A DNA stretch of 63,165 nucleotides, from positions 1-63,165 of the forward strand of contig CAZQUI010000004.1 in NCBI GenBank assembly GCA_964596595.1. Direction: 5' to 3'. Positions 187 through 44,963 of this stretch are shown piece after piece. Position 1 is the first letter of the stretch. Every line of letters begins with the position of its first letter. Made by a program: the position numbers and the translations under genes. Source of the DNA: an uncultured Candidatus Saccharibacteria bacterium. Lineage in GTDB: Bacteria > Patescibacteriota > Minisyncoccia > Phycocordibacterales > PALSA-1337. The notes beneath the pieces were generated by a model, which worked only from the letters and a program-made list of their open reading frames with translations, ran no database searches and was not told the origin of the DNA.

Positions 187-273
187 CGGAGAGAGTGGGA
201 TTCGAACCCACGGTTCCCGTGAGGGAACGGCGGTTTAGTAAACCGCTGCCTTAAACCACTCAGCCATCTCTCC
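187..273 (-). tRNA. tRNA-Ser, anticodon ACT (unusual A34)
   Basis: Reverse complement folds as GGAGAGA/TCTCTCC acceptor with G73, D loop AGTGGTTTAA, anticodon stem GCGGT/ACCGC with loop TT-ACT-AA (anticodon 237-239), long variable arm GTTCCC/GGGAAC and T arm GTGGG-TTCGAAT-CCCAC; CCA not encoded. Confidence 0.92.
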
Positions 274-363
274 TTTTTCAATTAGTTTAATTAAAACCAA
301 TTGAAACTGAGATCTAAAATCTACCTCATTTTAGATTAAATGCCAAACAAAATATCTCGAACT

Positions 364-783
364 CTACCAAGCTCCAATGATAGCTCCCATAGCAATCATA
401 GAAACAAGACTGCTGAAACATTCAAAAAGCCAAAGCTTTGGAGACTTGCCCATCCAGATAACATCTATAGAAGTAGTAGTCACCATAAAACCAACCCAGA
501 CAATAATTGCAGAAAATATTCCATTCCAAATAGGAGAATAATTTATCAAAGGAGAAGTAGAAAAAATAGCGTAAATAATTGATAAAACCAAAGCTGTGAC
601 TAAATTTACCACTAAATTCCAAAACATCTGTCCGTACATATCAGAAAGTTTTTCTTTTCCAGTAGGGTGAATGTCCGCAAGTTTCATCCATAACTTTCCA
701 GCAACAGGTCCATGCATTAAAAATCCAATGACAAATGCAGCAATCGCGGAAACAATAACAGCTAAAATATTTATTGGAAACAT
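364..783 (-). CDS. DUF1761-family membrane protein
   Basis: 139 aa, four hydrophobic helices, N-terminal 'INILAVIVSAIAAFVIG..W' pattern typical of DUF1761. Confidence 0.7.
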   Translation of the reverse strand: MFPINILAVIVSAIAAFVIGFLMHGPVAGKLWMKLADIHPTGKEKLSDMYGQMFWNLVVNLVTALVLSIIYAIFSTSPLINYSPIWNGIFSAIIVWVGFMVTTTSIDVIWMGKSPKLWLFECFSSLVSMIAMGAIIGAW

Positions 784-841
784 GTATTTTATATATTAAG
801 TATTAAGATAAATAAATAATATCATAAATCTTTTATAAAAA

Positions 842-1066
842 TCAGCGATGCGGACAACCTGCCCAGCAACATGGTCTACGTTTTCCTTCTCCTAATTCAT
901 TTACCGTCCTTTTCATTCTGTGAGTTCGTGTTTCTATTTTCTTAGCTGATTCTATCCAACAAATCCATTCATTACGCGCCAAAGGAGTTATGTCTTCCCA
1001 AGTAATTTTAGCTGCAGTTGATGCAATAATATTTTTTTGTAGATCTGAAGGTGTTTTGTGTAACAT
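842..1066 (-). CDS. YdeI/OmpD-associated (bacteriocin-protection) family small protein
   Basis: WEDITPLARNEWICWIESAKK..TR..R and C-terminal GKRRPCCWAGCPHR motifs. Confidence 0.8.
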   Translation of the reverse strand: MLHKTPSDLQKNIIASTAAKITWEDITPLARNEWICWIESAKKIETRTHRMKRTVNELGEGKRRPCCWAGCPHR

Positions 1067-1195
1067 TTTGTTTTTAAATTTTTATTAAGAGTCAAATTAA
1101 AATTTATTTGGTTTTACTATAAAAATAGTTTATCAGAATTTTTGATAAAAAACGTCAGTTATGACAAAATGCTTTTGAATACCAATATAATATAA

Positions 1196-1285
1196 GGAGA
1201 CGTGGCTGAGTGGTCGAAAGCGGCACCGTGCTAAGGTGTTAAGGGGGCAACCTCTTCATGGGTTCGAATCCCATCGTCTCCGCCA
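1196..1285 (+). tRNA. tRNA-Ser, anticodon GCT
   Basis: GGAGACG/CGTCTCC acceptor, G73 plus encoded CCA, anticodon stem GCACC/GGTGT with loop GT-GCT-AA, long variable arm, T loop TTCGAAT. Confidence 0.95.
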
Positions 1286-1322
1286 AGTAGGACGCTCTAA
1301 AAGCGACCCGAGTGCATAAATT

Positions 1323-1769
1323 ATGACAACAGAAATTATCTTAACGATTATAGGAACTCTTGGATTAGGTACTGTTATCGGTGCCTATTTTCAGTCGAAC
1401 TTTCAACATTCCAAGGATTTGAAAATGGACAATCATGAGTTTAAAAGAGCCCGATATGGTTCAATACTCATTCAAATGCTTACTATATTAGATCCAAAGC
1501 ACCTTGATAAGGTCTCAAAGATTCGCCCAGACCTCCGAAATATTGAAGATTTGAGAGAAGAGCTTAAGACAGAACTTTTAAATGCCTTTTTATATGCAAA
1601 CGATGATGTTATAAAATCTCTTTCTGTTTTTAATAAAAATCCTAACTACGAAAATTATTTGAATACCGTTTCAAGCATGAGAAAAGATTTGTGGGGTAAA
1701 AATACCAAAATATCCTCAAAAGACCTAGATTTTGTTACCGACCCACATACCTCAAACGTCCAAGTCTAA
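1323..1769 (+). CDS. hypothetical protein with N-terminal membrane anchor
   Basis: 148-aa ORF directly after the tRNA; one hydrophobic N-terminal segment; no motif recognised. Confidence 0.65.
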   Translation: MTTEIILTIIGTLGLGTVIGAYFQSNFQHSKDLKMDNHEFKRARYGSILIQMLTILDPKHLDKVSKIRPDLRNIEDLREELKTELLNAFLYANDDVIKSLSVFNKNPNYENYLNTVSSMRKDLWGKNTKISSKDLDFVTDPHTSNVQV

Positions 1770-1899
1770 ACGTGCTAAAATACCCTTACAAGTCTTGAAC
1801 GTCTGGGTACTTAACCCACATGGCCCGCAAAATAAAATTTACTAATAAAGGTTTACCCTCAAACTAAGCCACCTGAAGTTTTGTCTCAACGATCACAAT

Positions 1900-2208
1900 T
1901 CACTGATCATGATCTTCTATGTCACTAGCCTGGCCCTTTATTAAGTATTTCACTTCTTTTAATTCAATGTAAATTTTCTTAAATTCATTATTAATTTTTA
2001 TAAATTCATCATCTATTTTTTTGAATTTAATATCTACTTTTTCAAATCTGGCATCGATATCATCAAATTTTTTATAAACTTTTTTAAATTCACCACGAAC
2101 TTCAGTCTTAAACTCATTAAGATTTTCTGCTACTTCTTTGAAACCTTTATTAACCATAACTGCCAAATCATCGATTGTTACAGAAGGTGTATTTGAGATA
2201 TTTTGCAT
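1900..2208 (-). CDS. CPR-type coiled-coil (heptad F-x-x-I/V-D) protein, possibly truncated by a premature TGA
   Basis: TIDDLAVMVNKGF start and repeats KFDDIDA RFEKVDI KFKKIDD EFIKINN; the frame stays open for 11 codons past the TGA, to TAG at 1864-1866. Confidence 0.75.
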   Translation of the reverse strand: MQNISNTPSVTIDDLAVMVNKGFKEVAENLNEFKTEVRGEFKKVYKKFDDIDARFEKVDIKFKKIDDEFIKINNEFKKIYIELKEVKYLIKGQASDIEDHDQ

Positions 2209-2386
2209 AATATAAGAAAAGTTAATTGATAATTAAAATTGGCAGGTAACAAAAGCTTACCAAACACATACCATCTGCCTAGATCACAAAAATATAAAAT
2301 CATTGTCTATTGCAACAAAATTGATAACTTAATTCATAACCTGTCAATCTAATCGAACCGTCTCATATCCCGTACAATATCTAAAT

Positions 2387-4678
2387 ATGGCACTAACATT
2401 ATCAACTCTGGTCAATGATCAATTTCGCCTCACACCCCCACAACGAGAAGCCTTAAAAAAATTAGGCATAAAAACAATCGAAGATTTACTTTATCATTTT
2501 CCTACTCGCTACGGAGATACAGCTGAGGCATTAAACATTGAAACTTTAAAAAAAGGTGACACGGCTGTAATTTTTGGAAAAATTAGCAACCTCAAAACTG
2601 CCAAAGGTTTTCATTCAAAAATGACCATGGCCGATGGATATGTCGAAGACGAAACTGGTCGTATACAATGCGTATGGTTCAATCAACCGTATGTTGCCAA
2701 AATGTTTACCGATGGAATGCTCGTGAGAATTGAAGGTAAAGTTTCAGCTAGACAAAAAAAGAAAAACCCTAAGCAGACTACAACTTCTACAGAATCAGCA
2801 ACTCCAGAAACCAATGAACAATCAAATGAAAATGAGCGTCTCTATTTTTCTAATCCTAAAATAGAAATAGTAAACAAATTACCCGTAGGAGTCGGCGATT
2901 CCCTATTTGGTTCTGAAGGAGAAGAACATACTCTCTACCCTATATACCCTGAATCACGCGGAATTAGTTCTGCATGGATATATCATAATATTCAAAAAAT
3001 ATTTAAATCTGGGCTATTAGATGAAATTGTGGATCCTTTACCAGGACACATCTTAGTAAAGTATCATTTACCAAGTCTGAAAACCGCTCTCATTTGGATT
3101 CATACCCCCAAAAAAAGAGATGATGCTTTATCAGCTCGCAAGCGTTTTTCTTTTGAAGAAATTTTTACTATCCAACTAGGTAAACAGCAAGCACGTCGCG
3201 CATACGAAAAAATTCCTACCTTTCGAATCGAAACTAGTGATTCTCATGTTAATGAATTTATTCGTCGTTTCCCTTTTACAGCTACAAAAGCTCAAACAAC
3301 TGCCGTAGAAACAATTCTAAATGATATGCGAGGTAACCGAGCTATGTCTCGACTTTTAGAAGGTGACGTTGGTTCAGGAAAGACAGCTGTGGCTGCAGCT
3401 ACGGCTTATGCTGTAATGACAACGAGACCAGTAATCGTTGATCAAAGCGGCAAAACATTATCTGGAACCGATGGAAGAAGAATTGGAAACCTTCAGATAG
3501 CCTATATGTGTCCCACAGAAATTTTAGCAATTCAACATTTTGAATCATTTATCCAATTTTTCTCTTACATGCCCGTACAGATTGCTCTATTAACAGGATC
3601 AGATTGTCGGAAATTTCCTTCAAAAATAAATCCTAAAAGTTGGACCAGCATATCTCGCAATCAATTATTATCATGGGTAGCTGATGGGCAAATTTCTGTA
3701 GTCATAGGTACACATGCCCTTATTCAAAAATCTGTTTCTTTTAAAAATTTAGCTTACGTAATAATCGACGAACAACATCGTTTTGGCACAAATCAACGAG
3801 GTGAACTCATTAGAAAAAATTCTTTGGGAGGATCTATAGCTCCTCATTTACTCTCAATGACTGCTACACCGATTCCTAGAACATTAACTTTAACTATGTA
3901 CGGAGATCTCGATCTGACACTGCTCGACGAAATACCCACTGGCAGAAAACCAATTATCACAGAACTTGTTCTTCCAAATATACGTGATGAAGTTTATGAA
4001 AAAATTCGTAAAGAAATCCAAGAAGGTAGACAGGTGTATGTTATCTGTCCCCGAATTAATGAACCAGATCCAGAAAAAGAAGCTTCAATGATTGCAAAAT
4101 CAGTAAAAGAAGAAGCTAAGCGTCTCAAACAATCAATTTTTCCAGAATATGAAATTGGTATTCTTCATAGCAAAATGAAACCCAATGAAAAAGACTCCGT
4201 TATGGCAGATTTCAAGTCTGGAAAAATTCATATTTTATGTGCCACTTCCGTAGTAGAAGTAGGTGTAAATGTTCCAAATGCAACAGTAATTATCATTGAG
4301 GGTGCAGAACGTTTTGGTTTATCACAACTCCATCAACTTCGTGGTCGAGTTATGCGTAGTACGCACCAGGCTTATTGCTATATTTTTACTGAAAACAATT
4401 CAGCAAAATCAACCGACAGACTCAAGGCTTTAAAAAACGCCAAGAATGGTTTTGAACTTGCAGAACTAGATCTAGCAGCTCGTGGTGCTGGTGAATTATC
4501 TGGGACCAAACAATGGGGCGTATCTGATGTAGCCATGGAAGCATTACAAAATTTAAAAATGGTTGAGGCTGCCAGAAACGAAGCCGTGAGAATCGTTACT
4601 GAAGATCCTGAACTTTTACGTTATCCAGAGCTTAAAAAAGAAGTAGAAAATAGGACAAGCAAAATTCATTTTGAGTAA
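2387..4678 (+). CDS. recG: ATP-dependent DNA helicase RecG
   Basis: DLLYHFP.RY wedge domain, LLEGDVGSGKT Walker A, IIDEQHRFG, MTATPIPRTL, LHQLRGRV. Confidence 0.97.
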   Translation: MALTLSTLVNDQFRLTPPQREALKKLGIKTIEDLLYHFPTRYGDTAEALNIETLKKGDTAVIFGKISNLKTAKGFHSKMTMADGYVEDETGRIQCVWFNQPYVAKMFTDGMLVRIEGKVSARQKKKNPKQTTTSTESATPETNEQSNENERLYFSNPKIEIVNKLPVGVGDSLFGSEGEEHTLYPIYPESRGISSAWIYHNIQKIFKSGLLDEIVDPLPGHILVKYHLPSLKTALIWIHTPKKRDDALSARKRFSFEEIFTIQLGKQQARRAYEKIPTFRIETSDSHVNEFIRRFPFTATKAQTTAVETILNDMRGNRAMSRLLEGDVGSGKTAVAAATAYAVMTTRPVIVDQSGKTLSGTDGRRIGNLQIAYMCPTEILAIQHFESFIQFFSYMPVQIALLTGSDCRKFPSKINPKSWTSISRNQLLSWVADGQISVVIGTHALIQKSVSFKNLAYVIIDEQHRFGTNQRGELIRKNSLGGSIAPHLLSMTATPIPRTLTLTMYGDLDLTLLDEIPTGRKPIITELVLPNIRDEVYEKIRKEIQEGRQVYVICPRINEPDPEKEASMIAKSVKEEAKRLKQSIFPEYEIGILHSKMKPNEKDSVMADFKSGKIHILCATSVVEVGVNVPNATVIIIEGAERFGLSQLHQLRGRVMRSTHQAYCYIFTENNSAKSTDRLKALKNAKNGFELAELDLAARGAGELSGTKQWGVSDVAMEALQNLKMVEAARNEAVRIVTEDPELLRYPELKKEVENRTSKIHFE

Positions 4679-4716
4679 ACATTCAGCTAGGCTTACCCCT
4701 AGTTATAGCTAACAAG

Positions 4717-4790
4717 TCCGCCCTCTTGGATTCGAACCAAGGACCCCAGAGGTATAAGCTCTGTGCTCTAACCAACTGAGCTAAGGGCGG
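4717..4790 (-). tRNA. tRNA-Ile, anticodon TAT (UAU)
   Basis: Reverse complement: CCGCCCT/AGGGCGG acceptor with A73, D arm GCTCAGTTGGTTAGAGC, anticodon stem CAGAG/CTCTG with loop CT-TAT-AC (4754-4756), T arm CTTGG-TTCGAAT-CCAAG. Confidence 0.93.
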
Positions 4791-4856
4791 ATTTGCACTT
4801 TCGTGCACAAACACATCATATGCCAAAGATTAATTCAATTCAACTAAAATAACAGT

Positions 4857-6782
4857 TTACGCATGCAAAGTCTCGACTTCTGGTTTGTCTATTTTTTGTT
4901 TCGTGGATATACCGTGAGCAATCAATATAGCCTCATATTCTTCTCGTTCGATTGTTTCAGTTTCAATTAAACGCTTGGCGATGGTCTCAAAAACTTTTTT
5001 ATGATCCATCAAGACTTTTTCAGCATGACCACGAGCTTCGGTCATGATACGAGTGACTTCACCGTCTATTTCTGCAGCAACTTTTTCAGAATATTCTTTA
5101 TCATTTACCCCCATACCAAACATAACCTTTCCACCAGCCGCCTCCAAAGCAACTGGACCAATTTTTTCTGACATACCATATTTTGTAACCATATCACGAG
5201 CCAAAGAAGTAGAAACTTGTAAATCATTTGAAGCACCAGTTGTGAAATCATCAAAAATCATACGTTCTGCAACATAACCTCCAAGTGAAACAGCAATATC
5301 ATCTAAAAATTCTTTACGTGATTGTAATTTACGATCTTCAAGTGGAAGTTTTAGTGTATACCCTGCAGCTCTACCTCGCGAAATAATTGAGATCTTATGT
5401 ACAGGATCAGCATATGGTAAAACAGAAGCAACAATAGCATGACCAGCTTCATGGTATGCAGTGATCTCTTTTTCTTTTAGAGAAAGTATATGACTACGAC
5501 GTTCTGGACCAAGCATAACTTTTTCTATGGAACGAATAAGATCGAATTGACCAATTTTTGTTCGATTTTCACGCGCAGCCAATATAGCAGCTTCATTCAT
5601 AAGTGATGCCAAATCAGCTCCAGAAAAACCTGGAGTACGTTCAGCAATTACGCGCAAATCAAAATCTTCAGCTAATTGTTTTTTTGCAGAATGTATTTTT
5701 AGGATATCTTCCCTGTCTCCACGATCTGGTAAATCAATTACAACTCGACGATCAAAACGACCTGGACGCAAAAGGGCCGGATCTAAAACGTCTGGTCTAT
5801 TTGTTGCAGCCATGACAATAACTTTTTCATTTGGCTCAAAGCCATCCATTTCTACTAGTATTTGGTTAAGTGTTTGTTCACGTTCATCATTACCACCACC
5901 CATACCTGAACCTCTAGCTCGACCAACGGCATCTATTTCATCGACAAAGACAATAGCTGGCGCTGCTTCTTTTGCTAATTTAAAAAGATCTCGTACTCTT
6001 GAAGCGCCAACACCTACAAACATTTCAACAAATTCTGAACCAGAAATAGAGAAAAAAGCAACTCCGGCTTCCCCGGCAACAGCTCGAGCCAATAAAGTCT
6101 TGCCTGTACCGGGAGCTCCCATAAGCAAAACTCCTTTTGGAATTTCAGCGCCAATCTCTATAAATTTTTTAGGATTTTTCAAAAAATCAACAATCTCCGA
6201 AAGTTCTTGTTTTGCCTCCTTGGCACCAGCCACATCTTTGAAAGTTACCTTTTGTTTCTGATCATTTGGCATAATAATGCGAGCTTTGGACTGACCAAAA
6301 GACAAAGCTTGAACACCAGCACCTTTTACCTGACGCGATATCATCCAAATAAAAAATATCAAAAATATCAAAGGAACGATAAACGGAGCCAATTGACCAG
6401 TCCAATACCAAAAACCACTTGGTTCTTCTACGGATATAGTTGTAGAAGCTAACCGCACAGAAGAAACATTGAGACGAGACAGCGTTTCTGTAATAGAGAT
6501 ATTTGGTTCTTTTTGCGTATCACGAATAACACCATCACTATAAGTTGCGATTACTTTTTCTCCTCGAATGACCAAAGAATTTACCAAGCCTTTTTGTACA
6601 TCTAAAGCTAATTTTGAAAGTGGAATATTTTCTTTTGAAACTAAGTTTTTAGAAGAAAACTGTCCATATATTGCAGTTATTAGAAAAAACAAAATAAGAA
6701 TAATGATTGATACGTTCAAAAAACTCATTTTAGGAGGCATGGATTTTGATGTTTTATTGCTATTTTGTGGCACACTAGTCAT
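4857..6782 (-). CDS. ftsH: ATP-dependent zinc metalloprotease FtsH
   Basis: Two N-terminal TM helices, [31 protein letters not shown]. Confidence 0.98.
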
Positions 6783-6836
6783 ATCCTGCTGATTATACAG
6801 AAAAGTTTTAGAAAAGAAAGAATTTTTAGTAAGAAA

Positions 6837-8405
6837 TTATTTTTTTACTAACGGTAACTCAAAAATAAAGACACTGCCTTTTTCTAAACCTTCAGATTCA
6901 ACTTTAATATTTCCACCTTGTTTACGTAAAATTTCACGAGCCAAATATAGACCAATTCCAAGACCTTCAGTATGAGTACTAATAGCATTTGAGCCTCTAT
7001 AAAACCTTACAAATAAACGATTAAGATCCTCTGGTTTTATTCCTATACCATAATCACGAACTGACAAAACAGCAAACTCACGCTTCTTTGTTGCACTTAC
7101 TAATATCTTACCCCCACGATGTGAATAAGTTATGGCATTATCAAAAACCATTTGTAAAGCAAAAGCAATTTTTTTCTTTTCAATATAAACTTTTGGTAAA
7201 TCTGAAGGTATGACAACTTGAAGATTTAAATTCTTTTCTTTAATCCGATTACCCGAAACATTTACTATCTCATCAATCAAAATAGACAATTCTTCCTCCT
7301 CATATTTATTAACAAATTGATTATCATCGGCACCAGAAAGTCCAATCAGAGAATCAGTTAATTCTGACAGTCTTACATAAGCATCACTGATAGCATCCAT
7401 TGCTTTTGCCTTTTCTGTCTCATTTGGATTATTACGCAAAGTTTCTAAAGACCAATGAATATACGTTAACGGGGTTCTAAACTTATGAGTAACAACATCA
7501 ATAAATTGGTATTTAAGTAAATTAACTTCCCGGAAATTATTCCAAACTATTATCGCAAAAATAACAGCCACTACTGCTGAAAAGAGGGGTAGTAACCATT
7601 CTGGAAGCCCAGGAAAATAATAATGGATAGTTGTGTTTGCGTAGCCAGTAAAAAGAATAAACAATGTCACGACAGCTACACCAACAGCGTAACCAAAAGC
7701 CTTTTTAGCCAAAACATTTATATCAATAACTTCATATTTCAAAATAGCGTAAGAAAAGGGTATTGTGTACAAACCCATAAAAGCAGCTGGCAAAGGATCA
7801 ACAGCTATACCGTAAAGCAAAAATTCTGGAACCAAAGCAACCGTATATCCATATAAAAACCCAACGATAAGATACTTCAAGCGATTACGAGTATTATAAT
7901 CTGCATGATGATAGGCTGAGCCTAAATGAAAAAGAAAATAAACAGTTACTCCAAAAAAGAACATGTCCTGCAAATAATATAGGGGTCCTGGCACTAAAAA
8001 ATTTGGCAAATAAAGTGCTGGAGACGAAGGTAACATGAACTGATCTGGAAAAATTACATAATAAACTATAAGCAAAGTTGCAATAATATATAAAATATTT
8101 ATTATCTTTTTCTGTTTCTCGATTCTTTTTGTAATAAGTAAAACGAAATGAGCAGTCAAAACTGTTAGATATAGCGTGGCCATATTAAACATAAAGGCTA
8201 ATCGAGACAATTCTGGATCGTAAATATTAATTCCTAAAGCATAAGAAGCTATCCAAACTGCTGCGCTTATACTAAATAGTAGAAAGACTTTATTTATTAA
8301 ATTATTTTCTTTGGGACGACGAATGTAAACCAGCAGACCAAGTCCAATACAAACAACTAGAGAAATAGCAAAACCAATATTAGTTATTATGAGCTGAATA
8401 GGCAT
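6837..8405 (-). CDS. membrane sensor histidine kinase (multi-TM N-terminus, HisKA, HATPase)
   Basis: About 9 hydrophobic segments, H-box HKFRTPL, DNAITYS, VRDYGIGI, GLGIGL. Confidence 0.92.
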   Translation of the reverse strand: MPIQLIITNIGFAISLVVCIGLGLLVYIRRPKENNLINKVFLLFSISAAVWIASYALGINIYDPELSRLAFMFNMATLYLTVLTAHFVLLITKRIEKQKKIINILYIIATLLIVYYVIFPDQFMLPSSPALYLPNFLVPGPLYYLQDMFFFGVTVYFLFHLGSAYHHADYNTRNRLKYLIVGFLYGYTVALVPEFLLYGIAVDPLPAAFMGLYTIPFSYAILKYEVIDINVLAKKAFGYAVGVAVVTLFILFTGYANTTIHYYFPGLPEWLLPLFSAVVAVIFAIIVWNNFREVNLLKYQFIDVVTHKFRTPLTYIHWSLETLRNNPNETEKAKAMDAISDAYVRLSELTDSLIGLSGADDNQFVNKYEEEELSILIDEIVNVSGNRIKEKNLNLQVVIPSDLPKVYIEKKKIAFALQMVFDNAITYSHRGGKILVSATKKREFAVLSVRDYGIGIKPEDLNRLFVRFYRGSNAISTHTEGLGIGLYLAREILRKQGGNIKVESEGLEKGSVFIFELPLVKK

Positions 8406-8451
8406 TTAGGTTTAAATTATAACACCATTGAAAATACCTTGCATGAAGTTT

Positions 8452-8570
8452 GCGTGGCAGGAATCGAAGCTTACAGCTTCGGTACAGGCTTCACATTTTC
8501 TCGGAGCATAGCTCCTCGAAAATATGTTCAGCCTTTTCGATTCCCGACGCGACATGCGCAGGCACGTCGC
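8452..8570. other. multi-hairpin structured intergenic element downstream of tmRNA
   Basis: Outer stem ggaatcgaa/ttcgattcc encloses gaagc-ttaca-gcttc and a long aggct...agcct hairpin; an extra gcgac/gtcgc hairpin follows. Confidence 0.55.
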
Positions 8571-8585
8571 TCCTTATCAACCAAA

Positions 8586-8630
8586 CAGCCAACAAAAAAG
8601 GCCAACGGAGCTGGCACTTTTTGTTGGCTG
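8586..8630 (-). terminator. hairpin immediately 3' of tmRNA (probable terminator)
   Basis: cagccaacaaaaa ... tttttgttggctg perfect inverted repeat. Confidence 0.7.
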
Positions 8631-8995
8631 TGGAGATGGCGGGAATCGAACCCGCGTGTAATCGAAACTCACTAAACGATTCTACAGTGGTAGTAGAAAT
8701 TGAAGTTTAATGAATGTGCTCAAAACGTCTACAAAACACACATTCACGATCTCTAAGTTTCGAAATAAATAGTGAGAAGTTATTTATTTCTACATCCGGG
8801 TTATGACATCCGCATCAAGGTATGGATCCCCTTGAACGAACGCGCACTACTTAAGCGAGTGCGAATGCAAAGTCCTTTGCTCCAAAATATGGAGAAACGG
8901 TTGATTTAGCATTTGTGGTTTCCGTCAGATTTACGAGATAACAGTGCTCGCACTGCACGAATAGGAGTCGACGATTATCGAAGCCGATCATCCCC
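8631..8995 (-). ncRNA. ssrA: tmRNA; tag peptide AKSTVSPYFGAKDFAFALA* (8851-8910)
   Basis: 5' GGGGATG pairs with 3' CATCTCC-A including G3:U70; T arm GCGGG-TTCGATT-CCCGC; internal tag ORF ending ALA*; adjacent to smpB. Confidence 0.96.
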
Positions 8996-36352: not shown

Positions 36353-36378
36353 AAAAATAAAGGATATTGAATGATTTT

Positions 36379-36984
36379 TTATCCGACAATCTCGACTAAA
36401 GTTCCACGTTTACCGGGTATTGCTCCTGAAACATACATGACATTCTCTGTTGGGTCAATATGTACGATCTTGAGATTCTTAACGGTTATCCGATCTGAAC
36501 CCATACGACCCGCCATGCGTGTACCGACTGGAACACGTGTACGCAAACCTCCACCGATAGAACCCGGTTCACGTTCTGAATGTTTTTGACCATGAGTACG
36601 AGGTCCTCCACCGAAACCGTGTCTCTTGACTACACCTTGGAATCCCTTACCTTTTGAAGTGGCACTAACAGTAACATTGTCTCCTGAAGCGAATTGAGAA
36701 AGATCGATCTTGTCTCCAACCTTTAGTGATGGCTGATCAACTCTAAATTCTGTAATTGCAGCAAATGAGCCCAAATCTTTCAAATGTCCGCGAACAGCTT
36801 TTGATAAACGTTCTGGCTTACGAGAACCTTCACCTATTTGAAGAGCTTCATAACCATCTTTATCCTTTGTACGAACTTGTGTAACCACATTTGATCGCAC
36901 TGAAACAGCTGTAACAGGCACTGCTACTCCTTCAGTGGTAAAAATTTGGGTCATATTAAGCTTTCTTCCGAGGATGAATTTCAT
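36379..36984 (-). CDS. rplC: 50S ribosomal protein L3
   Basis: KLNMTQIF, SKGKGFQGVVKRHGF, REPGSIG, MAGRMG, GAIPG. Confidence 0.99.
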   Translation of the reverse strand: MKFILGRKLNMTQIFTTEGVAVPVTAVSVRSNVVTQVRTKDKDGYEALQIGEGSRKPERLSKAVRGHLKDLGSFAAITEFRVDQPSLKVGDKIDLSQFASGDNVTVSATSKGKGFQGVVKRHGFGGGPRTHGQKHSEREPGSIGGGLRTRVPVGTRMAGRMGSDRITVKNLKIVHIDPTENVMYVSGAIPGKRGTLVEIVG

Positions 36985-36999
36985 GGCAGTTCTTTTGCG

Positions 37000-37404
37000 T
37001 TACATCATTTTTACATCAATATTGACTCCTGACGGCAAACTAAGATTTGTCAGAGCTTCAATAACTTTTGGATTTGGATTTATAATATCAATGAGACGTT
37101 TGTGTACACGCATCTCAAATTGTTCACGAGAATTCTTGTCTATGAATGATGCGCGGTTGACCGTGTATTTCTTGATTTCGGTCGGCAAAGGCACCGGACC
37201 ATGTACTTCGGCATCATATCGAGCGGCTGTGTCCATGATCTGACGGAGCGAGGCATCAAGAATTTTGTGCTCGTATGCTCTGACACGGATGCGGAGGTGT
37301 GGTGCATCGCTTGAAACCGTGGCTTTGCGAGCACGAGCAGGTTTGTCACTGGCCGTTTTCGCAGTCTTAGCGGATTCATGAGATTTAGTTGTTTTTGAAA
37401 CCAT
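37000..37404 (-). CDS. rpsJ: 30S ribosomal protein S10 with basic N-terminal extension
   Basis: RIRVRAYEH..LD, GPVPLPT, SREQFE.RVHKRLIDI, GVNIDV. Confidence 0.98.
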   Translation of the reverse strand: MVSKTTKSHESAKTAKTASDKPARARKATVSSDAPHLRIRVRAYEHKILDASLRQIMDTAARYDAEVHGPVPLPTEIKKYTVNRASFIDKNSREQFEMRVHKRLIDIINPNPKVIEALTNLSLPSGVNIDVKMM

Positions 37405-37417
37405 GTTAATTTGTTGA

Positions 37418-37672
37418 CTAATTATATTGAACCTTCTCTGATAATGTCAGGATTCCAACTAAAACAATAAAAATAATTGACCAGACTATAATTCCAGAGA
37501 TACCATTTTGATAAAAACCCATAAAACCAAGACCGAAAGAGACAACTGCGGGAACCAAAGCAATCAATCCAATAATACGTGCCTTTTTTCCTTTTAATAC
37601 TTTATTTTTCGAAATTTTCATTTCCCCTCTCCAGAGAAGGAAGATTCCGACAATAAATAATATAATATCCAT
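37418..37672 (-). CDS. small 3-TM hypothetical membrane protein between tuf and rpsJ
   Basis: 84 aa, three hydrophobic segments, 9-nt and 13-nt gaps to neighbours. Confidence 0.75.
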   Translation of the reverse strand: MDIILFIVGIFLLWRGEMKISKNKVLKGKKARIIGLIALVPAVVSFGLGFMGFYQNGISGIIVWSIIFIVLVGILTLSEKVQYN

Positions 37673-37681
37673 TTCAATAAT

Positions 37682-38866
37682 TTAAGCGACTATTTTAGTG
37701 ATAACTCCTGCACCAACTGTCTTACCTCCTTCACGAACTGCAAAACGCTGTTGTGCATCAAGAGCAACTGGAGATACGAGTTTAACTTTGAAAGTAACAG
37801 TATCACCTGGCATAACCATTTCTTGAGTAAGAGTTACTTCACCAGTAACGTCTGTAGTACGAATATAGAACTGAGGCTTATAACCAGTAAAGAATGGAGT
37901 ATGACGACCACCTTCTTCTTTCTTAAGAACGTATACCTCTGCTTCAAACTCAGTATGAGGTTTTGAACTACCTGGTTTAGCGAGAACTTGACCACGAGAA
38001 ACACCATCTTTAGCCACACCACGAAGAAGAAGACCAGCATTATCTCCAGCAATAGCTTGCTTGAGTTGTTTATTGAACATTTCGATACCAGTTACAACGG
38101 TCTTGGAAGTATCTTTGAATCCAACGATTTCAACTTCATCGTTTAAGTTCAAAATACCGCGCTCTACACGACCAGTAACCACTGTTCCGCGTCCTTCGAT
38201 GGAGAAAATATCTTCGATAGGCATAAGGAAAGGTTTATCAGTTTCACGAACTGGCTCTGGGATAAAGGTATCCAAAGCATTCATAAGTTCATCGATCTTA
38301 GCTGTCCAAACAGGATCTCCTTCGAGAGCCTTAAGACCTGAACCACGAATAACTGGAGCTGCTTTACCATCGAAACCGTTTTTAGTGAGGAGTTCACGCA
38401 CTTCTTCCTCAACAAGATCCAAAAGATCAGCTTCTGCTACAGCGTCACATTTGTTAAGAAACACAAGAACACGAGGAACACCAACTTGCTTTGCAAGAAG
38501 GATATGTTCGCGTGTTTGCGGCATAACACCATCAAGAGCAGATACTACTAGAATAGCACCGTCCATTTGAGCGGCACCGGTAATCATGTTCTTGATATAG
38601 TCAGCGTGACCTGGGGCGTCTATGTGAGCATAATGACGTTTATCTGACTCGTATTCTACGTGAGCCAAAGAAATAGTAACTATTTTTGATGCATCACGAA
38701 CAGTTCCTCCTTTTGCGATATCTGCATAAGCTTTTGCATTTGCGAGACCTTTTTTTGATTGAACCGCCAAGATAGAGGCTGTCAAAGTAGTTTTGCCGTG
38801 GTCAACGTGACCAATTGTTCCAACGTTTACGTGTGGCTTTGTACGATTGAATTCTGCTGTTGCCAT
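37682..38866 (-). CDS. tuf: elongation factor Tu with atypical switch I
   Basis: [39 protein letters not shown]; switch I reads [16 protein letters not shown]. Confidence 0.99.
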
Positions 38867-39002
38867 AATATTATTTTATTGCCCTGTATTTTTTGAGTGC
38901 CATCGCCTGGGTGCGTGCGTAACGCGCAGACGACATAACTCAAAAAATGAAGGGATAAATTATTAAAGTTTATTAAAAACGCCAAATAGGCGCGTAATTG
39001 CC

Positions 39003-39031
39003 ATACTAGCATTAGTTACTTATAACGTCAA
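39003..39031 (-). promoter_or_regulatory. sigma70 promoter of tuf-rpsJ-rplB
   Basis: TTGACG (39031-39026), 17 nt, TAGTAT (39008-39003), TGn extension. Confidence 0.8.
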
Positions 39032-39036
39032 CAAAA
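39020..39036. repeat. 17-bp direct repeat, copy 1
   Basis: ttataacgtcaacaaaa, identical to 41507-41523. Confidence 0.9.
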
Positions 39037-39090
39037 TGTACACCTGCTACATATAGTGCTTCTTAGTTAAAAAATATTACTACAATATAA

Positions 39091-41322
39091 TTACCCCGAT
39101 TGAGCAGAAATAAATAGAACAGGTGCTGGTTTAAGAGGAACGATAAATACAGGTACTTCAAGAGTTGTCAGGTTGCCTGCTTGGTCCCTAGAATATACTT
39201 TGATGTAATATGACATTCCACGAGTAAGATCAGGAATGATAACTGAATGGTTAGATGTATATGTAGTAGAAATCGTTGGTATCATCATACCTGGTAACGA
39301 AGTACCATATTCAACTTGAGTTGTTGCATCTTCATTTGTAACCCAAGATATCTCAATACTTTTATTAAAGAGTTTCTTTAGTCTTAAATTAGAGATCACT
39401 GGCGCTATGGTATCTGGAGTGTTATGAGGTGACATATTATCCTCACCAACTTTTAATACAACAAAAACATTAAACTCTATTGGTGTATGATCTTTATTTA
39501 AATGATTAACATTACCAATAATTGGTGATACTACTTGCAAGTTCAAAGGCAAAACAACATTTGGATCAAACGATCTGTAAGTACCATTTACCACTGGTGT
39601 GCCGAAATAATTTTGCGCATCTCTAATCTCAAATTTGTCTCCATCTACAAGTCCTGATGTACTCAAATCTAATGTTACACTATTATTTTTTTGCCAATTC
39701 CATACAACTATATTTGCTCTCCCTTTTTCGTATTTATTTGGACGTATAATAATCTTATTTTCAGGAATATCTGTTAAACTTAGAGTACTGTTTTTCTCCC
39801 ATGTTGGCAAATCACTTAAATACTTCCAACCAGGAGCACTATATGGCGATATTTCCCAACCGGCTTTAGTCAAAACCCTAGGATCATTTTCATCAAACTG
39901 ATCTGCTCCATAGTATTTATTATAATTCCAATCGGCATTTGAATAACTAAAACCTGTTGGCATAATAAAACTAAGAACTACTCTATTTGCTCCAAAATTA
40001 TAAAAGGTGTTATTTTTTACTGTAACTTTTTGGTATTCTTTTATCCCAAACACTCCCCCATCTACACCACTAGGCATAGCTTCTGCCACATAATTACCAA
40101 TAGCAACTGCTTCTCCGTTATTTTTTGCTACATAACCAAAACCAATACCATTCCGATAAGCATTGTTATAATTAATGGTATTTAAATTGGCTGGCTGTAC
40201 AGCAGTTGTAATAGCGATACCTCTATCAGGATTATCAAAGACTATGTTACCTTCAAATGTAACACCGTTACAAAAACCACTTTCACCGTGACATTTCATT
40301 CCACCAGTAAAATTTTTAAATGATATAACGTCACTAATTAGAATATTGCCCACTTCGTTTTGACTATAAATACCTCCTCCTCTGGTCCATCCGTTTGGTT
40401 GAGAAGGATTTGAATTATCATAAATACCATTCCCCCACAAAAGATTGCCGTATATTTCACCTTGGTCAGATTGCTTCCAAAAACCAATTGCAGGATGTCC
40501 AACATTATAAATAATATTATTTATTGACTTATTACCAACTCCTACCGCTTGTAAATTTAATCCGCAACCTTTGTTAAACTGATCAGTAAAACGTTCTTCA
40601 CGTACACTAGTAATTTCTAATCCCCAAAACCAGGTATAACTTCCACTATGATCTATAATGCAACCACCTTTGATAATAGCTGTACCCACTGGAATATTTA
40701 CAAAATCTGCGGGCGCAGAGGCAACTTCAACATTATATTTGTTAGCATCTGCAGGATTTTTACTGTAAACACTAGAAGGATTCAAAAGATACAAACCAAT
40801 ACCATTTATTCGCGCCGTATAACCAAGTGGCCATTTTTCACCATTAGTAATACGCATCTCGTATCTAGTCGTCCAACCACTTATAGGTGTAATAGGTTCT
40901 GCTAAAGTAGCTTGAAAATTATCATTTATAACAACCTTTTCATTATTATAATTTCTAACGACAATTGGAGCAGAAGCTGTGCCTTTAATCTTACTTGTAA
41001 ACGGACCAGTATATGTTCCACTTCTCAACCATATCGTATCTCCTGGTTTTACTACATAATTTTTATTTGTTGAAACAGTATTATCTTCCAACGCCGTTAT
41101 TAAATCCCAAGGATTATTAATGCTACCATCTCCAGACGATGAACCTGTTGGGGAAACATACCAAGAAGAACCACCTGTACCAACTAAAGCCAATTGAGTA
41201 TTAAATACTAAACTTATTTTATTATATTGATTTAAAAAATAAACCGTAGAAATTGTAGCCATAAGGGCCACGAGTCCAACAAAAAAAGTAGCTACGTACG
41301 AAAATTTATAATTATAAGACAT
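39091..41322 (-). CDS. membrane-anchored right-handed beta-helix protein with C-terminal fibronectin type III domain
   Basis: N-terminal TM; WYVSPTG..GDGS..NPW start; N/G-rich beta-helix rungs; RPNKYEKGRANIVVWNW; Fn3 motif WVTNEDATTQVEYG...YYIKVYSRDQAGN. Confidence 0.85.
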   Translation of the reverse strand: MSYNYKFSYVATFFVGLVALMATISTVYFLNQYNKISLVFNTQLALVGTGGSSWYVSPTGSSSGDGSINNPWDLITALEDNTVSTNKNYVVKPGDTIWLRSGTYTGPFTSKIKGTASAPIVVRNYNNEKVVINDNFQATLAEPITPISGWTTRYEMRITNGEKWPLGYTARINGIGLYLLNPSSVYSKNPADANKYNVEVASAPADFVNIPVGTAIIKGGCIIDHSGSYTWFWGLEITSVREERFTDQFNKGCGLNLQAVGVGNKSINNIIYNVGHPAIGFWKQSDQGEIYGNLLWGNGIYDNSNPSQPNGWTRGGGIYSQNEVGNILISDVISFKNFTGGMKCHGESGFCNGVTFEGNIVFDNPDRGIAITTAVQPANLNTINYNNAYRNGIGFGYVAKNNGEAVAIGNYVAEAMPSGVDGGVFGIKEYQKVTVKNNTFYNFGANRVVLSFIMPTGFSYSNADWNYNKYYGADQFDENDPRVLTKAGWEISPYSAPGWKYLSDLPTWEKNSTLSLTDIPENKIIIRPNKYEKGRANIVVWNWQKNNSVTLDLSTSGLVDGDKFEIRDAQNYFGTPVVNGTYRSFDPNVVLPLNLQVVSPIIGNVNHLNKDHTPIEFNVFVVLKVGEDNMSPHNTPDTIAPVISNLRLKKLFNKSIEISWVTNEDATTQVEYGTSLPGMMIPTISTTYTSNHSVIIPDLTRGMSYYIKVYSRDQAGNLTTLEVPVFIVPLKPAPVLFISAQSG

Positions 41323-41506
41323 GGTGATAAATAAATTAATAAATAAAAATTGTGTCCTCGAGATATAGAAGGACAGACAGTTTTAAAAGAGAGGATCCAT
41401 CGAGGACTTTATTATATCAAAATAAACTACAGTAATTATCCACATTAAACATGCTAAACAATCTCCTTCCGGACAAAGTTTAATCAGAGTCCAAGGAGGA
41501 AATAAT

Positions 41507-41523
41507 TTATAACGTCAACAAAA
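41507..41523. repeat. 17-bp direct repeat, copy 2
   Basis: ttataacgtcaacaaaa, identical to 39020-39036. Confidence 0.9.
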
Positions 41524-41553
41524 AACGCCCTGATTTACATTAGAGCGTTTTTT
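41520..41553 (-). terminator. intrinsic terminator abutting repeat copy 2
   Basis: AAAAACGCTCTAA...TCAGGGCGTTTTTT on the minus strand. Confidence 0.75.
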
Positions 41554-41624
41554 GTTTCTAAAATTTTAGATTTAGTTTAGGGCTTTATATGATGCATTTA
41601 ATGTACCTAGATCAAATTACATCT

Positions 41625-41744
41625 TTAGTATCCAATGATAATTGCCTGCACAGCTGATGAACTGTATGTAAGCCAAGCCAAAAAAGCTAAAATAAGAACA
41701 TACTTCAAATTATCTGTTAAAAAATCTTTTTTTCGTGTAGACAT
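41625..41744 (-). CDS. putative 39-aa single-TM small protein (MSTRKKDFLTDNLKYVLILAFLAWLTYSSSAVQAIIIGY)
   Basis: Translated by hand (below the track cut-off); lies between two terminators; basic N-terminus then a hydrophobic stretch. Confidence 0.45.
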   Translation of the reverse strand: MSTRKKDFLTDNLKYVLILAFLAWLTYSSSAVQAIIIGY

Positions 41745-41822
41745 AATTTATATTAATTATTATATAAGAATTATAACAGTATAAAAGTGTAATGTTATCC
41801 CCATAGCCAAAAAATTCAATGC

Positions 41823-41870
41823 ACAAAAACAATAACCAAACTCCAGTGAGAGTTTGGTTATTGTTTTTGT
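41823..41870 (-). terminator. terminator after fusA
   Basis: acaaaaacaataaccaaactc...gagtttggttattgtttttgt long perfect inverted repeat. Confidence 0.85.
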
Positions 41871-41885
41871 AACTTGGATATTCTA

Positions 41886-44030
41886 TTACTTTCTCTTCTC
41901 AGCAATCTCCTTTTCTACATTAGATGGTACAACTTCATAATGATCGAACTCCATCATGGCACTACCTTGACCTGAAGTCATAGAACGAAGCGCAGTGGTA
42001 TAACCAAACATTTCTGAAAGTGGAACCTTTGCATGAATTGCGATATTTTGACCACGAGGTTCAGAACCTTCAACTTGACCACGTTTTGAAGCAATAGAAC
42101 CATTGACATCACCCATGTATTTTTCAGGAGCAATAACTTCTAATTTCATAATTGGCTCTAGAATTACTGGCTTGGAACGTTTAGCAGCTTCCTGAAAAGC
42201 TTGTGAAGCAGCAATTTTGTAAGCAATTTCAGATGAATCGACGTCATGGTAAGAACCGTGGATAAGTTCACAGGAAACATTTACCATACGAAAACCAGCA
42301 ACAATACCTCGATCCATGGCTTCATGAACACCTTTTTCAACTGCAGGAATAAATTCGTTAGGAATCACACCACCCTTGATTGAGTTGATAAATTCAAAAT
42401 CATCGTACCGTTTAATATTTTTTGGAATCTTCTCACCTTCTGGCCAAGCTTCCATTGGTTTCAAAATTATTTTTACGTGACCATATTGACCTTTACCTCC
42501 TGTCTGTTTGATATATTTATGTTCTGCTTCGGCGGTACCCATAATAGTTTCACGATAGGCAACCTGTGGCTCTCCTACATTTGCTTCAACTCCAAATTCA
42601 CGTTTCATACGATCGATCATAATTTCTAAATGAAGTTCACCCATGCCAGAAATGATAGTTTCTCCTGTTTCTGGATTTGAAGAAATTCTAAATGTTGGAT
42701 CTTCGTTACCAAGTTTCTTAAGAGCCATACCCATCTTTTCTTGGTCAGCTTTTGTCTTTGGTTCAATACGTAGAGAAACCACTGGTTCCATGAACTTGAT
42801 AGTTTCGAGAACAATAGGATTGTTTTCATCACAAAATGTATGAGAAGTTAAAGCATCTTTTAGACCAACGGCGGCGGCGATTTCCCCAGCAAAAACTTTT
42901 TTAACTTCTTCACGCTTATCTGCTTGCAGACGAACTATGCGACCCAATCTTTCTTTTTTACCCGTTGTTGAGTTGTAAAGATATGATCCAGACTCTACTG
43001 AACCAGAATATACACGGAAGAATGTAAGGGCTCCTACAAACGGATCGTTTTGAAGTTTGAAAGCAAGAGCTGAAAAAGGCTCTGTGTCTGAAGCGTGACG
43101 AATAACTTCTTCACCAGTATTTGGATTGATACCTTTTACAGGAGGAATATCTAAAGGCGATGGAAGATAATCGACAACAGCATCTAGAACCAACTGAACT
43201 CCAACATTTTTGAGAGCAGAACCAGTAAATACCGGGAAAATTTTATTTGCAATCACGGCTTTACGTGTAAGACCCTTGAGTTCTTCCATTGTAAACTCCT
43301 TACCTTCAAGGAAATGAGACATTGTGGCATCATCAGTTTCTACAATCTTTTCGATCATTTCAGCACGATACTTCTTTGCTTCTACCATCATTTCTTCTGG
43401 GATCTCTTTTTCAATTATATTAATGCCTTTTTCACCTTCAAAATAAAAAGCTTTCATGCGCATAAGATCGACAACTCCAACATGGTCACCTTCGAGACCA
43501 ATAGGTAATTGAAAACGAATAGCATTTTTATTGAGACGGTCTAAAATAGAAGCAAAAGAACGCTCAAAAGAAGCACCTGTTCTGTCCATTTTATTGATAA
43601 AACAAAGGCGTGGTACGTTACCCTCGTCAGCATAACGCCAATTTGTTTCAGATTGAGGCTCCACACCAGCAACTCCATCGAAAACTACAACTGCACCATC
43701 TAGAACGCGAAGTGAACGTTTTACTTCTACAGTAAAGTCGATATGTCCTGGAGTGTCAATGATATTGAAGCGGACCTTTTTGGAAACATCCTCTTTTGGC
43801 ATATAGGTTGGATTCCAAAAACAGGTGATAGCAGCTGCAGTAATAGTAATACCACGTTCTCGCTCTTGTTCCATCCAATCAGTAGTAGTTTCACCTTCAT
43901 GGACTTCGCCGATCTTGTGGATCATGCCTGTATAGTAAAGAATACGTTCTGAAGTTGTGGTTTTACCCGCATCAATATGAGCAATGATGCCGAAGTTACG
44001 CATGCGTTCAAGTGGATAGTCGCGATTCAT
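41886..44030 (-). CDS. fusA: elongation factor G
   Basis: RNFGIIAHIDAGKTT, EQERGITI, DTPGH, NKMD; true start MNRDY at 44030, the track start overlaps rpsG. Confidence 0.99.
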   Translation of the reverse strand: MNRDYPLERMRNFGIIAHIDAGKTTTSERILYYTGMIHKIGEVHEGETTTDWMEQERERGITITAAAITCFWNPTYMPKEDVSKKVRFNIIDTPGHIDFTVEVKRSLRVLDGAVVVFDGVAGVEPQSETNWRYADEGNVPRLCFINKMDRTGASFERSFASILDRLNKNAIRFQLPIGLEGDHVGVVDLMRMKAFYFEGEKGINIIEKEIPEEMMVEAKKYRAEMIEKIVETDDATMSHFLEGKEFTMEELKGLTRKAVIANKIFPVFTGSALKNVGVQLVLDAVVDYLPSPLDIPPVKGINPNTGEEVIRHASDTEPFSALAFKLQNDPFVGALTFFRVYSGSVESGSYLYNSTTGKKERLGRIVRLQADKREEVKKVFAGEIAAAVGLKDALTSHTFCDENNPIVLETIKFMEPVVSLRIEPKTKADQEKMGMALKKLGNEDPTFRISSNPETGETIISGMGELHLEIMIDRMKREFGVEANVGEPQVAYRETIMGTAEAEHKYIKQTGGKGQYGHVKIILKPMEAWPEGEKIPKNIKRYDDFEFINSIKGGVIPNEFIPAVEKGVHEAMDRGIVAGFRMVNVSCELIHGSYHDVDSSEIAYKIAASQAFQEAAKRSKPVILEPIMKLEVIAPEKYMGDVNGSIASKRGQVEGSEPRGQNIAIHAKVPLSEMFGYTTALRSMTSGQGSAMMEFDHYEVVPSNVEKEIAEKRK

Positions 44031-44067
44031 ATTAATCTTTAAAATTATATTACGATAAATTATTATA

Positions 44068-44538
44068 CTACCATGCAAAGTGAGCAAAAGCTTTATTAGC
44101 TTCAGCCATTTTGTGAACATTTTCACGCTTTTTAACTGCTTCACCTTCATTTTTAGAAGCGGCAATTATTTCATCAGCCAATTTTTCGGCTATAGGTTTA
44201 CCTTTTTTACCTCGAGCAGCTTCAACTATCCATTTCATGGACAAAGCCTGTTTACGCTCTGGTCGAACTTCACGTGGAACCTGATAGTTGGCACCACCCA
44301 CACGACGAGAACGGACTTCCATGAGAGGAGAAGTATTTTTTAAAGCCAATTCAAATAATTCCATAGGATTCTCAGTTTTTGCTTTTTCTTTTATAAGATC
44401 CATACAATCATGCACGATTGAACGAGCAATGTTCTTTTTTCCTGATTCCATTACGTAATTGATCAATTTTGAAATTTTTAGAGAATCATAAACTGAATCT
44501 ATTTCTAATTCTCTTTTTATATTTAATTTGCGTCGCAT
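44068..44538 (-). CDS. rpsG: 30S ribosomal protein S7
   Basis: [34 protein letters not shown]. Confidence 0.99.
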
Positions 44539-44543
44539 GATAG

Positions 44544-44963
44544 TTATACTTTAGCTACTTTTGGTTTTTTATTTCCGTACTGACTACGACCTTTACGGCG
44601 CTTTTCAACACCAGTGCAGTCCAAAACCCCACGAACAATTGAATAACGAAGACCGACATCTTTTACACGACCACCGCGAAGTAATACTACAGAGTGTTCT
44701 TGTAAAGCGTGACCTTCCCCTGGAATGTAAGCCGTAACTTCTACACCATTTGAAAGACGGACACGGGCAATCTTACGAACAGCTGAGTTTGGTTTCTTTG
44801 GAGTTTTTGTTGTAACTTTTACACATACACCACGTTTGAATGGTGAAGGAAAGAAAACCGGACGATTTTCGATACTATTGAAAGTACGGGTCAAAGCGAT
44901 TGATTTTGATTTTCGCTTAAACAACTTTCTACTCTTTCTTGTGAGCTGATTAATTGTTGGCAT
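44544..44963 (-). CDS. rpsL: 30S ribosomal protein S12
   Basis: [43 protein letters not shown]. Confidence 0.99.

Follow-up and report, generated by a model that had tools for sequence, protein, structure and literature searches.

Decoding-related tRNA genes and variant forms of S12 and EF-Tu on a contig of an uncultured Patescibacteria genome

We analysed a stretch of 63,165 nucleotides (the window), which is the whole of contig CAZQUI010000004.1 (C4) of the genome of an uncultured Candidatus Saccharibacteria bacterium (GCA_964596595.1, here G000; 635 kb in 15 contigs, 36% G+C, rated 98% complete). The window carries four departures that relate to decoding, namely a transfer RNA (tRNA) for serine with the anticodon ACU, a tRNA for isoleucine with the anticodon UAU, a ribosomal protein S12 without the proline of its decoding-centre loop and an elongation factor EF-Tu with a rewritten switch I. 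A sequence-only reading of the same DNA had proposed that these four may form one coordinated, modification-light decoding system in which unmodified A34 and U34 tRNAs replace the wobble-modifying enzymes and fidelity has been retuned in S12 and EF-Tu, with independent lineage drift of each trait as an equal alternative. All four departures are real according to the tRNA calls (ARAGORN, Rfam) and the alignments, and neither tadA nor tilS was found in the 98%-complete G000. The features concerned are listed below. Calls of tRNA genes were made with ARAGORN and Rfam in the window and with ARAGORN for the whole-genome set, which comprises 36 tRNA genes.

186..273, minus strand: tRNA-Ser(ACU) (ACT gene); ARAGORN, Rfam
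1196..1285, plus strand: tRNA-Ser(GCU) (GCT gene), the standard reader of AGC and AGU; ARAGORN, Rfam
4716..4790, minus strand: tRNA-Ile(UAU) (TAT gene), an AUA reader without TilS; ARAGORN, Rfam
37682..38866, minus strand: tuf (EF-Tu), 394 residues, sole copy in the genome; E 5e-178 to solved EF-Tu over the full length
38672..38716, minus strand: EF-Tu switch I variant, residues A51-I65; from the alignment to solved EF-Tu
44544..44963, minus strand: rpsL (uS12), 139 residues; E 7e-51 to Bacillus subtilis uS12
44643..44663, minus strand: S12 decoding-centre loop K101-Y107, KDVGLRY; alignment gap

A transfer-messenger RNA (tmRNA) was also called in the window by both programs.

Handles such as G000 denote the genomes sampled and are common to all counts, with G000 being the genome of the window; f-numbers denote families. 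The order sample (n = 41) covers the window's genus with 25 species and a further 16 families with one genome apiece. The phylum samples were drawn evenly across Patescibacteria and comprise 401 genomes for Ser(ACT), TadA and EF-Tu, 151 genomes of at least 90% completeness for TilS, and a 101-genome subset for Ile(TAT).

Transfer RNA genes and the missing wobble enzymes

The Ile(TAT) gene has the anticodon loop CTTATAC and A73, as read from its sequence. The isoleucine tRNAs of G000 are GAT and TAT, and the genome has just two CAT tRNAs, identified from their sequences as the methionine initiator and elongator; no tRNA-Ile(CAU) was called by ARAGORN in the 15 contigs of this 98%-complete assembly. 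TilS was not found in G000, where the best match to PF01171 (19.5 bits) is MnmA, and the same model exceeded its cut-off in 14 of 14 control genomes. It did so in none of the 41 order genomes. Across the phylum TilS was found in 73 of the 151 genomes, consistently within families, and is absent from 52% of that sample. By ARAGORN, 23 of the 41 order genomes carry Ile(TAT), and eight other families are represented among them. In the phylum subset the tRNA-Ile(TAT) pattern matched 45 of the 101 genomes, with 43 matches being tRNA-like on inspection of the matched strings. These Ile(TAT)-like genes were present in 43 of 51 TilS-less Patescibacteria vs 0 of 50 TilS-bearing ones, counts that come from related genomes spanning many families and to which no p-value is attached. 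The link between tRNA-Ile(UAU) and TilS is thus tight.

The codon served by this tRNA is used heavily in G000, with ATA at 25.8 per 1000 codons, above ATG at 21.3. The isoleucyl-tRNA synthetase (IleRS) of G000 belongs to type 2: among solved structures it matches Thermus thermophilus 1ILE and also 8C8U best, followed by eukaryotic cytoplasmic enzymes, with type 1 (1FFY) scoring far lower, and its C-terminus is DUF5915. The data therefore support a coupling of known kind, in which the lack of TilS goes with tRNA-Ile(UAU) and with the IleRS type known from other TilS-less bacteria. The IleRS gene lies outside the window (G000:C1:29543-33004; L304:144-3605, minus strand) and encodes 1153 residues, and we note that a complete histidine-phosphatase domain (Pfam His_Phos_1, 1.9e-32; residues 509-676) is embedded in it and separates the two halves of its catalytic core.

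A related tRNA was called by ARAGORN in G026, a genome of the same order (L262:1501-1573). It is 73 nucleotides long, and its anticodon, TTA, would pair with the stop codon UAA. The gene is 77% identical to the window's Ile(TAT); its anticodon loop is TTTTAAG and its anticodon stem contains a single C-A mismatch. It could be an Ile(UAU) gene in decay or, alternatively, a suppressor; the S12 gene of G026 showed no read-through. An apparent TAA inside the S12 genes of G026 and G031 proved to be merely the normal stop codon ending the gene.

A second coupling concerns the CGN codons. The arginine tRNAs of G000 are GCG, TCG, TCT and CCT, and no tRNA-Arg(ACG) is present in the ARAGORN set of 36. 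The TadA model NF008113 had no match in G000. The single CDA-fold protein of the genome has 304 residues and carries a PCxxCAK motif, which we take to be typical of dCMP deaminases. The gene beside it was read as thymidylate-synthase-like, and the CDA-fold protein itself looks like a dCMP deaminase. TadA-like matches of about 70 bits were obtained in four of the 41 order genomes. At a threshold of E <= 1e-12 such matches were found in 66 of the 401 phylum genomes and in none of the remaining 84%; the curated cut-off was exceeded in just two genomes (G059 and G086). The lack of TadA goes with the replacement of Arg(ACG) by Arg(GCG) and Arg(UCG), and a coupling of known kind is again supported. 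With Arg(GCG) for CGU and CGC and Arg(UCG) for CGA and CGG, inosine is not needed.

The description of this genome as modification-light holds in part. Besides TilS and TadA, MnmG and enzymes of the MiaB/RimO type were not found in G000, but MnmA, Tgt, TrmD and TsaD are present, and the modification toolkit is reduced, not absent. As regards the completeness of the tRNA set, neither tRNA-Asn nor tRNA-Phe was found in G000 by ARAGORN without introns allowed. With introns allowed, a tRNA-Asn(GTT) was proposed outside the window (G000:C2:75469-76107) with a 566-nucleotide insert in the anticodon loop, and tRNA-Phe was still not found; further intron-containing calls made alongside it appear to be spurious.

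The Ser(ACT) gene has the features of a regular class II tRNA-Ser. As read from the sequence, it has a perfect 5-bp anticodon stem (GCGGT/ACCGC), a seven-nucleotide anticodon loop (TTACTAA) with U33, a long variable arm and G73. It is one of five serine tRNA genes called in G000 (ACT, GCT, TGA, CGA and GGA), and its A34 sits in the split AGN codon box with the G34 isoacceptor Ser(GCU) retained beside it. Ser(ACT) is present in 10 of the 25 species of the genus, always with the anticodon ACT, and is 95-100% identical in the nine species other than that of the window. It is no sequencing accident, and neither are the S12 and EF-Tu forms, which recur in the genus (below). Ser(ACT) was not found in the single-contig G017 nor in the 98%-complete G010. 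In a different family of the same order, G035 carries Ser(ACT) together with a full-length S12 loop and a canonical EF-Tu.

Across the phylum the Ser(ACT) pattern matched 22 of 401 genomes, and ARAGORN confirms 19 of these, from 13 families and more than one class. The genes usually adjoin Ser(GCT), which lies within about 1 kb in most loci compared, and are clustered with Arg(GCG) in three genomes. Their anticodon arm is conserved with compensatory stems (GCGGT/ACCGC, GAGGT/ACCTC, GCAGT/ACTGC, ACGGT/ACCGT and ACAGT/ACTGT), and across 29 copies both the anticodon stem and the variable arm contain base changes that compensate each other. On an 85-column tree the nearest neighbours of ACU tRNAs are ACU tRNAs of other families. 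A single origin was considered: the ACU tRNAs do not form one clade on this tree (at least three changes), yet one clade is not rejected (p-AU 0.32). In the window the sole gene between the divergent Ser(ACT) and Ser(GCT) genes encodes a DUF1761 protein of 139 residues (364-783, minus strand); the gap between the two tRNA genes is only about 100-200 nucleotides in several relatives.

Codon usage in G000 favours AGT (15.1 vs 3.6 per 1000 codons for AGC), such that 81% of AGY codons are AGU. There is no enrichment of AGU in the ribosomal-protein region, where it accounts for 20.8% of serine codons vs 21.3% elsewhere. A check of the meaning of AGA by way of EF-Tu was uninformative, since EF-Tu uses no AGA codon. 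The proportion of Ser(ACU) carriers with a TadA-like match (1 of 19) does not differ significantly from the background of 16%. Contigs from RNA libraries (four runs of one wastewater study) contain 186-273 whole and without differences, with the anticodon unchanged; this is weak evidence, as the contigs run into unlike flanks, drop minor variants, may derive from DNA or from relatives, and do not demonstrate transcription or tell what state the mature tRNA is in.

tRNA-Ser(ACU) is a conserved extra isoacceptor, which most likely reads only AGU, by Watson-Crick pairing. Support for AGU-only reading comes from the work of Schmitt et al. (2024), in which an orthogonal ACU-anticodon tRNA in Escherichia coli reads AGU and not AGC (at least 95:5) and is not deaminated (PMC11066159). 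We infer that A34 of tRNA-Ser(ACU) stays unedited and that the genetic code is unchanged. No paper describing tRNA-Ser(ACU) or a natural A34 tRNA of this kind was found in a literature search.

The S12 loop and EF-Tu switch I

In the window S12 the loop reads KDV-GLRY against KDLPGVRY, a one-residue gap at which the proline is gone; solved S12 proteins read RGGRVKDLPGVRY there. The PNSA loop and the Asp are kept. The short loop is present in 37 of the 40 readable order genomes, and all readable members of the genus share this form. Full-length loops in the order sample are those of G034 (LPGV), G035 (LAGV) and G026 (LIGV). At the level of the phylum, loop length was read for the 150 S12 matches listed of 279, and among these the short form occurs only in G000, in G177 of the same order and in G316 of the same class; all other listed matches are one residue longer than the query span. 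Among the carriers of Ser(ACU), a full-length S12 loop is seen in G035, G239, G304, G109 and G191. The S12 deletion is a lineage trait of the order, shared with one genome of its class.

We note that another ribosomal protein of the window, S10, has a frame of 134 residues (37000-37404, minus strand), of which the Pfam S10 domain spans 38-132. The 37 residues ahead of the domain are an N-terminal extension, or else they precede a true start located downstream of the one called.

Switch I of the window EF-Tu has a two-residue insertion and a replaced effector motif. Solved EF-Tu reads QIDKAPE--EKERGITI there, and the effector segment (A/S)PEE(K/R)xRGITI is absent from the window protein, in which the P-loop, the Mg-binding Thr of the (I/V)TI motif, DAPGH and NKCD are all kept. 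One tuf match was obtained in G000. This form of switch I (variant A, KGGTVRDA) is found in all full-length sequences of the genus and in no other family of the order sample; one 1.8-kb EF-Tu fragment in G008 is the exception within the genus. The canonical APEEKARGITI is present in 13 other families, and a second variant (variant B, AKASExxGRRDxSKIITI) in three more (G036, G029 and G030; loci L085, L087 and L110). Variant B is three residues longer than the window's form and five longer than the canonical one, and looks related to variant A. The EF-Tu switch I is a lineage trait of the genus.

Beyond the order, a variant-A-like segment (E <= 1e-14) was matched in eight of the 401 phylum genomes, the window's and seven others, and Ser(ACT) is missing from all seven. 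They include G059 and G086, the sole genomes with TadA over its cut-off, and G059 has TilS as well. When KGGTVRDA was scanned against one genome per species, most of the matches listed lay in tuf of Planctomycetota and Verrucomicrobiota, and small numbers came from Myxococcota and Patescibacteria. Of the genomes that share this switch I, five were examined (Lacipirellula, an Isosphaeraceae, Akkermansia, a Thermoguttaceae and Lacunisphaera); TilS is present in each (5/5), as is an S12 loop reading DLPGVRY (5/5). Variant A is the normal EF-Tu form of Planctomycetota and Verrucomicrobiota. The same type of switch I was also seen in tuf on contigs labelled Myxococcales, Polyangiaceae, Sandaracinaceae and, in one case, 'Proteobacteria' (L114, L140, L166, L169 and L170).

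Whole-gene transfer of tuf from one of these two phyla, Planctomycetota or Verrucomicrobiota, was considered as the source of this likeness and rejected. In a maximum-likelihood tree the window EF-Tu groups with its own order, canonical members included (support 99), and apart from the two phyla; the genus keeps this position with or without the switch I columns. Because of this grouping, a recent whole-gene transfer is unlikely. The sole canonical EF-Tu sequences in these trees are the Patescibacteria ones, and the trees do not give the direction of change. The same 15-residue switch I segment is common to distant phyla, and a literature search found no paper on the variant.

Between fusA and tuf the window encodes a protein of 743 residues (39091-41322, minus strand), which breaks the usual order of the str operon. 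It has an N-terminal hydrophobic stretch and weak Pfam matches, below the cut-off, to a right-handed beta-helix and to the N-terminal domain of purple acid phosphatase.

Do the traits go together?

All four traits and both enzyme losses co-occur in G000 and in nine other species of the genus. Across a wider range the proposed retuning of fidelity in S12 and EF-Tu loses its footing: a comparison across Patescibacteria finds both variants distributed independently of the enzyme losses, the pattern that the sequence-only reading had itself named as its refutation, and coordinated retuning is unsupported since the traits sit at different depths (order, genus and phylum-wide). On the EF-Tu tree built without the switch I columns, one change is needed for EF-Tu type, three for the S12 deletion and seven for Ser(ACU). 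On the order tree, differences in Ser(ACU) are mostly not accompanied by differences in EF-Tu type, with independent contrasts too few for a p-value, and among the 401 phylum genomes Ser(ACU) and this EF-Tu type are found together in the window's genome alone. The part of the proposal that stands is the replacement of wobble enzymes by tRNA genes, as indicated by Ile(UAU) and by the pair of Arg(GCG) and Arg(UCG).

In our view, the most consistent explanation of the data, to which we assign a probability of about three in four, is that decoding has been rewired through tRNA genes and not through the ribosome, and that the S12 and EF-Tu variants are separate lineage traits. AUA, a major codon, has a dedicated tRNA-Ile(UAU) that is predicted to be charged by the type-2 IleRS; CGU and CGC have Arg(GCG), and CGA and CGG have Arg(UCG); and the extra Ser(ACU) beside Ser(GCU) would take AGU. 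The short S12 loop would have arisen on the branch of the order and the EF-Tu switch I on that of the genus, with nothing that ties either to the tRNA changes. The published ACU tRNA is handled accurately by the ordinary ribosome and EF-Tu of E. coli, and therefore an A34 serine tRNA needs no special ribosome.

Several points weigh against this explanation. The genomes are metagenome bins, in which tRNA genes often stay unassembled. Eight of the 51 TilS-less genomes have no Ile(TAT) match, the pattern being perhaps too strict or another solution being in use. For the phylum, S12 loop length rests on the 150 matches listed of 279. The genomes with the S12 deletion are all without TilS and, in nearly every case, without TadA as well, and the deletion could be a later adjustment that makes sense only on a background without the two enzymes. 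The ribosomes of Mycoplasma mobile, furthermore, block the misreading of AUG by tRNA-Ile(UAU), and S12 has been named as a candidate cause (PMC3575796).

The last two points lead to an alternative in which the S12 deletion alone is a later fidelity adjustment, in an order already without TilS and TadA, that restricts for example U34-G or A34 mispairing, with EF-Tu unrelated. The deletion is nested in a clade without TilS in any sampled genome, and the loop lies at the decoding centre, where mutations of K87, P90 and G91 in E. coli S12 give restrictive or streptomycin phenotypes; RimO, the modifier of the neighbouring Asp, was not found in G000. However, families f3, f11, f12 and f19 of the same order keep the full-length loop and are also without TilS, and the at least three changes on the order tree come with no matching change in the tRNA set. 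There is approximately one origin, so no statistic applies. Ile(TAT) was not confirmed in the full-length-loop genomes G026 (f3), G034 (f11) and G035 (f12). We regard this alternative as unlikely. A more specific form, which we consider quite unlikely, is that the order's loop without proline is a natural restrictive ribosome variant limiting U34-G and A34 mispairing by Ile(UAU) and Ser(ACU) where TilS, TadA and MnmG are lacking. If true, the short S12 loop would be the molecular basis of the AUG-rejecting ribosomes that have been seen but not explained in M. mobile.

The view that enzyme loss, A34 and U34 tRNAs, S12 deletion and EF-Tu switch I make up one co-adapted system, with S12 and EF-Tu retuned to keep unmodified tRNAs accurate, is very unlikely. 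It can draw on the joint presence of all traits and losses in G000 and its nine congeners, and there is a precedent in the ribosomes of M. mobile, which, unlike those of E. coli, stop tRNA-Ile(UAU) from reading AUG (PMC3575796). Set against this, no phylum genome besides the window's (401 sampled) combines Ser(ACU) with the EF-Tu type, which is itself standard in phyla with TilS and a canonical S12 and occurs with both TadA and TilS in G059. About half of the phylum is without TilS and yet has an S12 loop of normal length (among the 150 matches listed of 279), the deletion is missing from the Ser(ACU) carriers of families f12, f19 and f47, and the traits change on different branches of the order tree. 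An ACU-anticodon tRNA is, moreover, already AGU-specific on E. coli ribosomes (PMC11066159).

Editing of Ser(ACU) to inosine by another deaminase, which would let it read AGU, AGC and perhaps AGA and leave AGA decoding ambiguous or changed, is hardly credible: the 304-residue CDA-fold protein of G000 and the TadA-like matches of a few Ser(ACU) carriers (G006 and G423) speak for it, but E. coli TadA leaves an ACU anticodon unedited (PMC11066159), 18 of the 19 phylum carriers have no TadA-like match, tRNA-Arg(UCU) and tRNA-Arg(CCU) are present in G000, the CDA-fold protein carries motifs that we take to be of the dCMP-deaminase type, and the anticodon is unchanged in the RNA-library contigs, a weak indication given that these drop minor variants and may derive from DNA.

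Comparison with known decoding systems

Taniguchi et al. (2013) reported that the TilS-less M. mobile, Bifidobacterium and Neorickettsia use tRNA-Ile(UAU), with a type-2 IleRS in the latter two (PMC3575796), and 'Ca. Spiroplasma holothuricola' is another system with tRNA-Ile(UAU) and no TilS (PMC5861454). Like these, G000 is without tilS, has tRNA-Ile(UAU) and lacks a third CAU tRNA, and it has an IleRS of the eukaryote-like type 2 that Bifidobacterium and Neorickettsia also possess. Unlike in these exceptions, the loss of TilS extends to roughly one in two of the Patescibacteria sampled, AUA is used as a major codon in G000, and a histidine-phosphatase domain is embedded in the IleRS of G000. 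In the study of Diwan and Agashe, TilS was present in 98.18% of the bacteria covered and was described as evolutionarily stable (PMC6063277). Our frequencies in Patescibacteria contrast with this near-universal and stable distribution, and no paper on TilS or lysidine in the candidate phyla radiation (CPR)/Patescibacteria, nor on these loss frequencies, was found in a literature search.

Decoding of CGN without TadA has been described in Mollicutes by Yokobori et al. (2013; PMC3711424). As there, G000 is without tadA, does not rely on inosine and has a U34 Arg(UCG) to cover CGA and CGG. The difference is that a G34 Arg(GCG) replaces Arg(ACG) for CGU and CGC in G000, and that a TadA-like gene was not found in 84% of the phylum sample. 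The losses of TilS and TadA are thus linked with replacement tRNA genes and are common, not exceptional, in Patescibacteria (52% and 84%).

An unmodified A34 tRNA is known from Mollicutes in the form of tRNA-Thr(AGU). As in the engineered A34 tRNAs of E. coli, the A34 of Ser(ACU) is expected to pair with U. Unlike them, Ser(ACU) is natural and conserved, and serves a split codon box beside a G34 isoacceptor. The EF-Tu of Planctomycetota and Verrucomicrobiota has a nearly identical switch I, ending in (S/T)K.VTI, but the rest of the window EF-Tu groups with its own order (support 99).

The S12 and EF-Tu variants coincide with the tRNA changes as lineage markers. Three objects for experiment emerge, namely a natural family of A34 Ser(ACU) tRNAs, a natural deletion in the S12 decoding centre and an EF-Tu switch I common to distant phyla. 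Compared with the systems above, the window is a further case of known enzyme-free decoding together with two unexplained protein variants, and not a new coordinated system.

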